From the NCBI RefSeq assembly GCF_018977255.1, contig NW_024705026.1, positions 1-64,000 on the forward strand: DNA of 64,000 bases, written 5' to 3'. Source of the stretch: Callorhinchus milii (lineage: Eukaryota). The notes under the pieces are model-generated. The model saw nothing but the letters and a program-made list of their open reading frames with translations. It was not told the DNA's origin and made no database searches. Of this stretch, positions 9,438 to 22,032 are shown one piece after another. Made by a program: the position numbers and the translations under genes. The number at the start of each line of letters is the position of its first letter. The first letter of the stretch is position 1.

Positions 9438-9462
9438 ATGGAGCGATTGTTTCTCATCCTCG
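9438..9462 (+). CDS. Putative leader exon 1 (MERLFLIL, phase 1)
   Basis: gacATGG Kozak-like start, hydrophobic codons and a strong donor G|gtgagt. It is short, as in the split-leader genes of LILR/FcR type. Confidence 0.55.
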
Positions 9463-9584
9463 GTGAGTATAGTTTCTAACCCGATGACAGAGACGGCCCA
9501 GCCAGAGAGATGGAACGTGGAGAGGAATCTGAGGCCTCTTGTTTGACCTTCAATTGTCCTTTCTACAAATCTTCCGTGCCATAA

Positions 9585-9990
9585 CACTGTCTGCCTTCCT
9601 ACAACTCCACAACATCATCCGGCTCCACCGTTGTCTCACAACGCAGACTGCGTGACTCCTAATACATTGATTGATAACATCCAGGCTTGACTTTGCAATC
9701 TTCCTGCTTGGCGGCCTCCCCAACTATTTCTTCGATAGGCGGCAGGTCATCCAGAACACTGCATGTCGTGTACTCTTCTGCACGTTTCTCCATGATACTA
9801 TCAACCCCATCCTCGCTTCACTCCATTGGATAATGTTCAAGATAATGATCTTCAGCTTCAAAACCATCTATGGCCTCGCTCCCTTCTACATCTGCAAACT
9901 CATAACCCCTTATCAACCTACCCGCTACCTCCGCTCAGCGAGCTCTCTGCTGCTTCGCGTCCCCCTGAAGAATGTTAGGAGGACCTGCAG
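9585..9990 (+). mobile_element. L2-type LINE ORF2 C-terminal fragment
   Basis: ITSRLDF...QVIQNTACRVL...INPILASLHW...FKI...GLAPFYI..L..Y.P.R.LRS is the typical L2 C-terminus. Confidence 0.85.
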
Positions 9991-10164
9991 CCGCCCAATG
10001 GGACTTTCCATTTCAAGAGATTCCTATTGATTCGCGATTCGATCACACTCCTTCGCCACCTTCTCTACACCCTCCTTAATCCAGACCCCAAGATCGGATC
10101 TGACGCACTGTCCGTCCAGCGATTTTGGACGTCAAATGCCTTGTACAAATGCATTTTTGTTGTT

Positions 10165-11320
10165 GAGAGAGGAGAGGCGAAATAGTAGAAAAGGGAGAGG
10201 TGGCGAGAGAGTGGAGAGTCGAGCGAGAGGAAAACAGACAGAGTATGGAAAGGAGAGAGGGGAGAGCAGTCCGAGAAGATAGAGCTGAGAGGGTAGAAGA
10301 GCGAGAGAATGTGGAGAGCTGAATGGAGTTAGAATAAAAAGTGGGTGACAGAGAGAGGAATGAGGTTCTGTAGAGGGATAGAGATGAAAGGCAGAGGGAA
10401 GACGGTCTGGGTGGACGGACAGAGGGAGAGATGAGGGAGAAAATGAGTGTCAATATAGAACAGATGGGGGACAAAGTGGAGGATAGGAAGGGGTAAATCG
10501 ACGGTGTGAGGAAGAAGAAGTGGGAGAATAATGGGGCGAAGACAAGAGAAGAAAGGGGAGCAAAAGGGAGTGAGCGAGGAGGAGCAGGAGGGGAGAGTTA
10601 GGGGAGGATGGAGATGGAGATGGGATGAGTAGTTGAAGAGTATGGAGGGAGGCAAGAGCGAGCAGGAGAGGGAGCGAGTGAGTGATGAGGGAATGCAGTG
10701 CAAGGGAGGGTACTAGGGAGAGAAATGCGAGTGCTAAAAGCAGGTAGAAAGGCATGGGACGTCGGAGAAAGGAAAGAAATGGAGCTGTGCAAATGATAGA
10801 GAGAACGGTGAAAGGATTTTGGCAATGATAATGTCCGTCGGGTAGCTTTCCCGCAAAAAGCTATATTGTAATATTGCTACATAAATGCAAAGCGTCAAAA
10901 TGCAAAGTACAGCCAGAGAAAACAACAGCGAGCGAGAACACTCATTTCCGAAAGGGAATAACAGTGTAATCTGGCTTGTAACGGGAGTTCAGATGAACTA
11001 ATCTGTTTCTGGCAGAGGAGAGACGGAAGAGGGGGTAGAGGGGCATAGAGGAGAGAGGTGAGGGTGGAGAGGGGATCGGAGGAGAGAGGGGATAAGAGGG
11101 GAGTGATAAATGAGGAGGGATTGGAAGGGAGCAGAGAGACGGAAGAAGGTAGAGGAGAGGGGGGAGAGGAGCGGGGGGAGGAAATTTGATAGAAGGGATA
11201 AGACGAGAGGGGGCATGAGAGGCGAGAGGAGACAGCAAAGAGTGGAGAGGAGATTGGAGATTGCTGCTGGGAAAGGACAGCGCAGAAGAGCGTAGAGAGG
11301 AGGGAGTGGAGGAGATGGAA
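10165..11320. repeat. Purine-rich (GA) low-complexity tracts
   Basis: Mostly G/A on the + strand at 10165-10810 and 11010-11320. Confidence 0.85.
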
Positions 11321-11929
11321 TTTCGGTTTCTGGGATGTCACCACATCTCATATTCTCCAAGACTTGAAAGAGAAACAGAAAGGATCCTTGGACAGAAAAC
11401 GCCGATCAGCCCAATGGTGTGTTTGTGAATCTGTGAATGTGTTCCTTCTTAGTCCTCTTGTCTGCTTCCCAATTGTGCCTGTGCTGGTGCTTGCTTCCCC
11501 ATTGGAGCTCTCAACGCCAGTCCCATTTTCTGCTCTCTCCATTTCGTAGCTCTGCTCATGCTCTCTCCCCAACTAGAGTTCTCTACTCTAATCCCGTTCC
11601 CTTTCCTCTCTCTCCCCATCCTGTCTGTGCTAATGCAAACTGGGGCCTTTTAGGTTGATATTTGAATGGCTGCGCTGTTGTTAACAATCCACCACTTATT
11701 GTGTGAAAGGCCGGACCGATCAAATCTCCGATTGTGTAATTTACCATATTAATAACTTCTGCTTCGGTCTTGTTTCTTTTTTTGTGCAGTGATATTTCTG
11801 AAGAGAAAGATGGTGGAATGTGAAGGTTAGTGTCACAATCTCACAGCCAGAAGCTGCGGGAACAATAGCTGATGAGAGTGAGAATCGGCCTCTCTTCACG
11901 TCCATCTGTGGAACAAGAGAAGAAACCGT

Positions 11930-12210
11930 CATACAATCCACAGACAACGTTAATAGTCTGCTTCCAACCATACACTTGTCCGTCGTGCGCCATTGGTGAC
12001 CGCGTTTTGAGCCGCTGCACCACGAAACCCTGATATAATTTACATCTATCCCTCTGCCTTGTCAATTCATTTTCAATCTTCAGATGGAGTCTGAAATCCT
12101 TCCTAGCGCACCGTACACAAGTCATCTTCCCAACCCCCCCGGCTCGATTTCGAGCTACGCCTGAGGGCACCATCGCGTGTGAGGGGCGCTGCATGAATAA
12201 AAGTTTATGT
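11930..12210 (+). mobile_element. L2-type LINE 3' end (degenerate)
   Basis: IGDRVLS...YNL.LSL...SFS.F...LKSFL resembles L2 GDRAFS..AP.LWNSLP...FKS.LKT.L; followed by an aataaa tail. Confidence 0.6.
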
Positions 12211-20503: not shown

Positions 20504-20547
20504 CGATGCCCCCACGGGAGGCGGCCCTCAAACCAGCAATGTCACCT
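20504..20547 (+). CDS. Cytoplasmic exon 2 (44 nt, phase 2-1): SDAPTGGGPQTSNVT
   Basis: Long polypyrimidine tract tctctcttttctctctcag| and donor T|gtgagt. Confidence 0.72.
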
Positions 20548-21377
20548 GTGAGTATGAGATTTCCTGGGTTTGAGCCCAGAGGGAAAGGAGCTGATCAGAA
20601 ACAGGACTGGTCAGCCGTGTGCCCGAGCCACACGTCAACACATCGCTTGCTCATGAGCCTCCCCCAAAGCCGACGGCACTGTTCTCTTTGCCTCTCTCTC
20701 TCCAGCTCTGTCACGACCCTTTTCTCTTTGTCCATCTGAATGTGTGTGTGAGTTGTGAGTTGCTGTTTTTCCGCGAGTCTGTGTGTCTGCGTGTCTGACT
20801 GTCTGTCTGCGTGTCTGTGTTTCTGACCGTCTGTCTGTATACCTATCTGTATATTTGTCAGCATATCTTTCTGCATGTTGACTGTATGCCTGCCTGCATT
20901 TCTGAATGTGTCTGTGTGTCTGTCTGTATCTTACTTATCTGAATTTCATCCGCTTCTTGTTTTCTGTCCATCACACGACGTTAAATTAAGGTTCCATCTG
21001 CCTGTTCAGGTGGACAATAAATTTCCATCGGCACTATTTAAAGAGGGAAATGCGTTTATTCCCGTTGTCGTAGTCAACAAAGTAAAGTTGGTCTTTCATC
21101 CATGTTAGTTTGGGTACAAATTGGATATTCGTCTCGAACAAAAAGCCGAAAGTCTCTCCACGACACAATGCACCATGTGAGCGCTTTGGGACTCGCGACG
21201 TGGCGATAAGTTATTATGCAGAGTTCATTGATATATAACTGCTTGTCAAACAGTTATTTTTCTCATCATCATTAAACATCATACATACTAATTACTAATA
21301 TCATCGATAATAATATTACATAACGCTGAGCGTTAAAGAAACGTGATACTGTTAAATCACGCTTCTGCTTGTTTCAG

Positions 21378-21418
21378 ACGCGACGGTGAGATTTTCTGCA
21401 CGATCGGTGACTCGAGAG
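21378..21418 (+). CDS. Cytoplasmic exon 3 (41 nt, phase 1-0): YATVRFSARSVTRE, completing ITIM VTYATV
   Basis: gtttcag|AC...GAG|gtgagt; the junction T|AC creates the Tyr. Confidence 0.72.
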
Positions 21419-21442
21419 GTGAGTAGTTACGGATTCATTATT

Positions 21443-21787
21443 TCAGCCCAACTCAGCCCTGTGTCAGCAAAGCTCAGCCTTGTGTCAGCACAAATCAGCA
21501 CTGTATCAGCCCAGCTCAGCCCTGTGTTAGCACAGCTCAGACCGGTGTCAGCCAACTCAGCCCTGTGTCAGCCCAGCTCAGCCCTGTGTCAGCCCAGCTC
21601 AGCCCTGTGTCAGCCCAGCTCAGCCCTGTGTCAGCCCAGCTCAGCCCTGTGTCAGCCCAGCTCAGCCCTGTGTCAGCCCAGCTCAGCCCTGTGTCAGCCC
21701 AGCTCAGCCCTGTCTCAGACCAGCTCAGTCCTGTGTCAGCCCAGCTCAGACGTGTCTGAGTACAGCTCAGGCCATGTGTCAGCCATT
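21443..21787. repeat. 21-bp minisatellite (tcagcccagctcagccctgtg), ~16 units
   Basis: Perfect central units and degenerate edges. Confidence 0.95.
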
Positions 21788-21968
21788 GCTGATCGTTGGG
21801 TGTGTAATTCTGTGTAAGTGTATACGCGCATGTGTCTGTACATGTGTGTGCGGGTTGGATCTGTGCAATCGGTTTTATGTTTGTGTGTGTGTATATGTTT
21901 CTGTCTGTCTGTCTGTCTGTATCTTTATGTTTTTATGTTTTTGCCTTTGGTCTGGCATTGGGAAACAG

Positions 21969-22032
21969 GAGTGAGAATCGCCGTGAAGACGGTGAGGACC
22001 AATGTCCAGTCCACGCCACACTCAGAGTGTAG
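21969..22032 (+). CDS. Possible terminal exon (SENRREDGEDQCPVHATLRV*, or E* if spliced in phase 0)
   Basis: Acceptor aaacag|; C-terminal VHATL resembles a decayed xxYATL motif. Its phase does not match the preceding exon. Confidence 0.35.

Follow-up and report, generated by a model that had tools for sequence, protein, structure and literature searches.

The first 64,000 nucleotides of contig NW_024705026.1 of the chimaera Callorhinchus milii (the window) contain, between 9438 and 22032 on the + strand, the exons of a putative receptor gene in which a scavenger receptor cysteine-rich (SRCR) domain is followed by two immunoglobulin (Ig) domains, a transmembrane (TM) segment and a tail with an immunoreceptor tyrosine-based inhibitory motif (ITIM). 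As judged from sequence, the gene is probably a broken and likely dead inhibitory-type copy. It belongs to a chimaera family, large in size, of predicted paired receptors that join SRCR domains to Ig domains resembling those of the leukocyte receptor complex (LRC). The architecture of the family, its two signalling types, its tandem expansion and the lesions of the window copy are read directly from the DNA. It is practically certain that an SRCR-Ig paired family is real at the sequence level, and by analogy its members would work like LILR and PIR receptors. The window copy is of importance in itself only as a pointer to this family.

Exon structure and lesions of the window copy

Seven consecutive exons with canonical splice sites and matching phases had been reported in the original prediction, and splicing by coordinates reproduced both their AG..GT ends and the phases 1,1,1,1,2,1. 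They comprise a group B SRCR exon (13381..13698), the exons of Ig domain 1 (16428..16712) and Ig domain 2 (17587..17871), a TM exon (18661..18759) and three tail exons (19758..19785, 20504..20547 and 21378..21418), all on the + strand. Ahead of them the leader is split into a first exon of phase 1 with 25 coding nucleotides (9438..9462, +), present with the same length in six of the eight paralogues tried, and a mini-exon of 36 nucleotides (11790..11825, +); the latter measures 36 nucleotides in all nine spliced paralogues, a length imposed by the splicing script and with which the DNA alignments agree. The exon structure is not a product of chance, because tandem genes repeat this order of exons. 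The domain assignments were borne out by Pfam, with a strong SRCR match (E 6.5e-27) and weak Ig-family matches for the Ig exons (E 3e-6 to 4e-4). The SRCR exon encodes six cysteines and lacks C2 and C7, which is a family trait, and the second Ig exon is open and LRC-like. The TM core has no charged residue, as had been claimed, reaches a hydropathy of 2.25 over 19 residues and is of the inhibitory type. Tail exon 1 has 28 nucleotides as in the paralogues, and an in-frame AG located 6 nucleotides upstream provides an alternative start at 19752. Tail exons 2 and 3 each encode one half of the ITIM VTYATV which, as originally described, is created only in the spliced genomic sequence, across the predicted 20547/21378 junction.

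The claim that this copy encodes an intact SRCR-Ig-Ig-TM-ITIM receptor did not hold. The window copy is unable to make it because of a stop in Ig1 and the loss of the last-exon acceptor together with the second ITIM, and its frame is not open from leader to ITIM tail. The stop is an in-frame TAG at 16610..16612 (+), codon 188, whose counterpart is Ser, Thr or Leu in five of six paralogue exons compared (Ser in four). In each of the four other public runs, all of the same species and from one study, one long contig spans the site with no other letter. The TAG is therefore not an assembly slip, and assembly error was ruled out as its source. The TAG precedes the 3' end of its exon by 100 nucleotides and is followed by further introns, which makes the full transcript a predicted target of nonsense-mediated decay. 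The second lesion affects the last exon, of which a remnant is left at 21951..22032 (+). A deletion at about 21949/21951, of ~450 nucleotides by comparison with paralogue C237, removes the genuine splice acceptor along with the IxYAxL ITIM. The acceptor is kept in 25 of 26 paralogues, ahead of D-A-D-I-x-Y-A-x-L, and the tyrosine of this second motif is present in 24 of the 26 paralogue last exons; the window copy lacks both. None of the 13 AGs listed after 21760 is an acceptor that would restore the second ITIM, and tail exon 3, which ends in phase 0, reads 'E, stop' when joined to the AG at 21967-21968. The terminal tyrosine motif has His in the window copy and in an X2 contig, and Tyr in an X3 contig. 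The Ig dN/dS of the window copy against paralogues (0.27-0.44) is similar to that of paralogue pairs, and the copy was therefore lost recently. It is very probably broken, and likely a pseudogene.

Three points weigh against its death: (i) the run contigs can hide a rarer allele, so that an open Ig1 allele is possible; (ii) the last-exon deletion is read in the assembly only, positions 21872-21949 having been passed over as repeat in the runs, and (iii) in X2 a loose end looks like an intron without the deletion, from either an allele or a paralogue. The copy might also still work in a reduced form: with Ig1 skipped and the AG at 21967-21968 serving as acceptor, the product would be an SRCR-Ig-TM protein that has one ITIM and a length of about 293-295 residues. 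Skipping of the symmetric Ig1 exon keeps the frame through VTYATV, the SRCR, Ig2 and TM exons are open, and members with one Ig domain exist (P0029). However, Ig1 retains normal splice sites, the AG that would stand in for the lost acceptor is weak (pyrimidines at 7 of 18 positions), the lesions are two and separate, and none of 30 protein matches corresponds to the window copy, the best being 71% identical. Such a reduced receptor appears improbable, and a broken copy is the reading retained here.

A family with two signalling types

The 30 protein matches of the window copy all lie at 53-71% identity, and those that are named are all Callorhinchus milii models. Membership of a multigene family, as had been proposed, is evident from the genome: at least 150 family Ig exons were found (Ig2 search; 150 of 249 candidates scored, all matching), which group into at least 69 runs on 32 contigs. 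For 46 of the 69 runs there is an SRCR exon on the same strand no more than 14 kb upstream, and for one there is such an exon downstream (150 of 422 candidates scored in the SRCR search). From these 46 SRCR-headed runs, 29 continue into an inhibitory TM or last exon and eight into an activating TM. DNA searches gave 48 distinct inhibitory-type loci (27 TM and 27 last-exon matches). These gene counts are rough lower bounds and may include alleles, which tells against the family as drawn here. Leader, mini-exon, one to three SRCR, one to five Ig and TM exons are repeated in tandem in ~450 kb of DNA. On the - strand at G000:C135:16205-54749, 17 family Ig exons form one run between SRCR and inhibitory TM.

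The architecture originally predicted does exist in an open copy. At C36:35338-45576 the window exon sizes recur (36/318/285/285/99/28/44/41, given from the mini-exon on, the first leader exon not being resolved), with an open frame to three tyrosine motifs. Paralogues C237 and C36:96k are open with some tyrosines lost, and C101:152k contains stops; tail frames refer only to C36:35k, C237 and C36:96k. RefSeq models P0004, P0005, P0020 and P0029 combine SRCR, Ig, TM and ITIMs, and P0073 combines SRCR, Ig and an NxxR segment. XP_007910464.1, XP_007883112.1 and XP_007909116.1 are likewise RefSeq members of the family, whose automatic names are inconsistent (DMBT1-like, IGSF1-like, A1BG-like, uncharacterized). 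Model P0015, named TRIM17-like, has an SRCR, two family Ig domains and PRY/SPRY, and is either a true fusion or a mis-joined model.

Inhibitory members have the uncharged TM and the ITIMs of LRC receptors. The activating partners with charged TM, a search for which had been advised, were found: the TM of P0018, itself an NxxR segment, retrieved 19 activating TM exons, 17 of them with NxxR and a short tail in the same exon, as in the LRC, and some of them broken. NxxR defines activating TM segments, which bind FcR-gamma (PMC2413239, PMC6557307), and ITIMs recruit SHP-1/2 (PMC4825776). The PF11628 search of the genome gave one zeta/gamma-type adaptor locus, L097, with its TM exon at G000:C4:11453717-11453800, closer to CD3 zeta than to FcR-gamma. 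The search for the DAP10 family gave no match and is uninformative. Intact members would be displayed on leukocytes, where, by the precedent of LRC biology, VTYAxV and IxYAxL would serve the inhibitory ones as docking sites for SHP-1/2. In activating members the TM arginine would mediate pairing with an adaptor carrying an immunoreceptor tyrosine-based activation motif, for which the CD3-zeta-like gene was the only one found.

Affinity of the Ig domains and origin of the family

The LRC-like character first attributed to the Ig domains agrees with their matches in PDB. A profile of 15 family Ig domains placed PirB, LILRB2 and LILRB1 on top, with LRC receptors in the first nine positions; at modest scores, 33 of its 43 matches were LRC and 10 were Fc-epsilon-RI-alpha. 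For the seven-Ig member P0001, LRC receptors made up all 35 matches. The leader is split over two exons in the window copy and its paralogues, as in LRC receptors, in which the leader mini-exon has 36 nucleotides, a length for which a literature search gave no source. With the LRC paired receptors (LILRA/B, PIR-A/B, KIR, OSCAR, NCR1; CHIR/TILR of birds) the chimaera family has in common the C2-type Ig similarity and the split leader, the uncharged inhibitory TM followed by a multi-exon ITIM tail, a single exon for the activating NxxR TM and its short tail, and tandem expansion with broken copies. Unlike them, it has one to three N-terminal SRCRs in most members examined and one to 17 Ig exons per run; the Ig-only ectodomain, an LRC trait, is missing wherever an SRCR stands upstream, as in 46 of 69 runs. 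A split leader is described as an LRC feature, with the exon layout of CHIR/TILR (PMC3601082).

Strict descent of the family from the LRC is unproven and only somewhat favoured. The family, real in either case, may have come from FCRL-like or independent C2-Ig receptors, its LRC likeness reflecting deep ancestry or convergence, and would then be LILR-like in working and not a strict homologue. Accordingly with such an origin, the shark relative P0092 matches FCRL5 best (1.6e-26), then PirB and LILRs, single-domain scores to LRC are low (~18 bits), and the 13 chimaera domains in a 140-domain Ig tree, built from named proteins after removal of near-duplicates and containing neither mammalian nor bird sequences, group together in a single clade (support 0.99) whose sister group is not resolved. 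The tail likeness to shark receptors is driven by the ITIM, since the tail of an eel FCRL5-like protein matches equally, and tail homology was rejected as not specific. On the other side, FCRL5 is absent among the matches of chimaera queries though present in the library, and the NxxR TM and short tail share one exon as in CHIR/TILR-A (PMC3601082). The leader exons, of 25 and 36 nucleotides, also depart from the 30/21-nucleotide pattern given for FCRL (PMC2413239), a rule that holds for part of the FcR/FCRL family only. An origin outside the LRC is thus a possibility of some weight, to which we give less credence than to LRC descent.

Scans of the CNOT3, C33 and C29 neighbourhoods gave no LRC synteny, which is in keeping with that alternative. 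Genes that flank the LRC include CNOT3, PRPF31, TTYH1 and RPS9. The 200 kb around CNOT3 (C31; 140 of 1116 frames scanned) contain no family exon, and Prp31_C had no match in the genome search. Other LRC-flank markers are dispersed: Tweety on C16 and C20, tRNA endonuclease on C12, SAC3/GANP on C6 and C21. The family clusters are mostly on small unplaced contigs. Flanking the C33 cluster (129 of 920 frames) are a LIN28-like exon, a T-cell receptor V-like (TCR-V-like) exon, G protein-coupled receptors (GPCRs) and pieces of long interspersed elements; a 12p13-type neighbourhood was considered for this cluster and dropped. The C29 flanks (L154-L168, G000:C29:4.10-4.25 Mb; 119 of 1028 frames), with CLPP, DNase II, two inverted complement-C3-like genes and a GOST-family gene, surround only two orphan family Ig exons. 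Further to the CNOT3 result and to the FCRL5 match of P0092, two facts count against paired receptors of LRC kind: NxxR is not exclusive to the LRC, being found also in Xenopus FCRL and SLAM receptors (PMC6557307), and no FcR-gamma gene was found in the PF11628 search of the genome.

The age of LRC-type receptors is unsettled in the literature (PMC4016189, PMC6557307, PMC13262535). Sharks are reported in the first to be without LRC homologues; in the second, fish counterparts are uncertain and automatic LRC names mislead; the third, a survey of 2026, groups KIR/LILR as mammalian. LILR-like genes have also been traced to ray-finned fish via LITRs (PMC8562567). The chimaera family, with LRC-like Ig domains and both ITIM and NxxR forms, makes the question testable and supplies named candidates for regulation of natural killer and myeloid cells at the root of adaptive immunity. 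We tentatively propose, while holding it to be doubtful as a whole, that the family is the chimaera equivalent of the LRC, with 60-100 genes and an Ig-only version in sharks and rays, in which case LILR/KIR-type pairs would date from the jawed-vertebrate ancestor; the chimaera would have captured a disulfide-reduced, hypervariable SRCR tip and would run its activating arm via CD3 zeta without FcR-gamma. No published description of the family was found in the literature searched (subscription papers lay outside the search), nor was the design of an SRCR tip on a paired receptor. LRC and scavenger-receptor terms gave no match in the main texts of PMC10751288 and PMC3964593 or in the tables of the latter, its Supplementary Note being outside this check.

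The SRCR domain and relatives in other species

The window SRCR belongs to group B, and its nearest solved structures are those of CD163, DMBT1, CD5L and CD6. Like group B domains, those of the family occupy a single exon and have six to eight cysteines including C1-C4. C2 is missing in all 20 family SRCRs scored; the subtype of P0029 and P0030 retains eight cysteines. C2 and C7 form a disulfide pair that is also lost in some domains of the CD163 family (PMC2906472), and variation within the chimaera family is concentrated in the two loops adjoining the lost pair. The N-terminal SRCR, free of this disulfide and variable in those loops, would be the chief module for diversified binding, and the Ig domains would form a stalk or a second site of binding. 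Microbial pressure would drive a birth-and-death evolution of the family, the window copy being one such death. A less likely view is that the SRCR is an adhesion or self-ligand module of the CD6/CD163/WC1 kind, and the family a set of threshold-setting self sensors and not of pathogen sensors. The identity of the nearest solved SRCRs is in keeping with it, and the SRCRs of the CD163 family have both host proteins and bacteria among their ligands (PMC2906472); nevertheless, the large expansion, the paired signalling and the loop-focused variability would fit an arms race. The reading adopted here is a paired-receptor system with the SRCR as its variable tip, whatever the class of its ligands.

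Group B SRCRs encoded by single exons are common to CD163, CD163L1 (SCART) and WC1, and the C2-C7 loss in some CD163-family domains is a further likeness (PMC2906472). In the excerpts cited, CD163-family proteins are described with SRCR-only ectodomains, while the chimaera family joins SRCR to Ig and to ITIM or NxxR. The original statement that no known mammalian receptor joins these modules has to be amended, as mouse FCRLS, a soluble protein, combines a group B SRCR with Ig domains (PMC4016189); unlike the chimaera family, it is encoded in the FcR locus, lacks TM and ITIM and has no paired family.

Among the 106 SRCRs of a second tree, those closest to the window domain, in one clade with it (0.977), include N-terminal SRCRs from multi-SRCR genes without Ig. 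These genes are situated in the family clusters, on C33, C38 and C42, and their first SRCR exons belong to the receptor family's own type. The eight-cysteine subtype is placed loosely (0.86) beside some other chimaera SRCRs and the SRCR+Ig domains of elasmobranchs and teleosts. The Ig-less genes, with seven to ten exons, lie at G000:C33:1089000-1098000, C38:457000-470000, and C42:436000-448000 and 547000-560000, and we infer that they are CD163/WC1-like. The single exon-shuffling event once envisaged for this gene is not upheld: the SRCR-Ig fusion was not one-off, because it is present in rays, sharks, bowfin, teleosts and a caecilian, and is old and widespread. Exchange as such fits, the six-cysteine SRCR being common to the Ig-less genes, and the data would be consistent with an old fusion followed by later exon exchange, in either direction, in the chimaera lineage.

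A search with P0013 matched 681 representatives, of which the best 150 were examined; 137 of these were new, and SRCR and Ig domains occur together in 37 of the 137. Of these 37, 21 are non-chimaera proteins for which a TM is predicted, and neither a canonical ITIM nor NxxR occurs in any of the 21. Ten named SRCR+Ig relatives come from two rays, bowfin, six teleosts and one caecilian, with further ones in bamboo sharks and a smooth-hound. The SRCR+Ig proteins of these groups, such as XP_069783103.1, XP_051864824.1, XP_066566105.1 and XP_033817435.1, have the same type of Ig, at 25-36% identity; unlike the chimaera family, they mostly have eight-cysteine SRCRs, often interspersed with Ig domains. 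ESM Atlas clusters of chordate SRCR+Ig proteins score 0.95-0.96. White shark, stingray and sawfish have Ig-only relatives whose tails are ITIM-like; NxxR forms are present in a lizard and a tortoise. The Ig-only shark and ray receptors (XP_041036010.1, XP_059805649.1) have related Ig domains, uncharged TM and ITIM-like tails in common with the chimaera family and differ in that their models are without SRCR. Shark and ray clusters of Ig-only LILR/FCRL-like receptors, several with ITIM-like tails and under scattered automatic names, are represented by P0070, P0074, P0082, P0092 and P0187-P0201.

Some neighbouring features deserve record. About 35 kb from the C33 cluster, at L143:4789-5373 (G000:C33, about 1.055 Mb), a TCR-V-like exon is followed by a heptamer, a 23-nucleotide spacer and a nonamer. 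The window itself holds copies of a class A GPCR, which we take to be GPR139-like, at 56945-57865, 33716-34531 and 545-631, all on the - strand and ~48% identical to the GPCRs that flank the family on C33; the first is open over ~300 codons and the other two are partial. A 4.9-kb direct duplication joins 541-5449 and 57751-62668 at 94% identity, with a third copy of 2.1 kb at 34525-36637.

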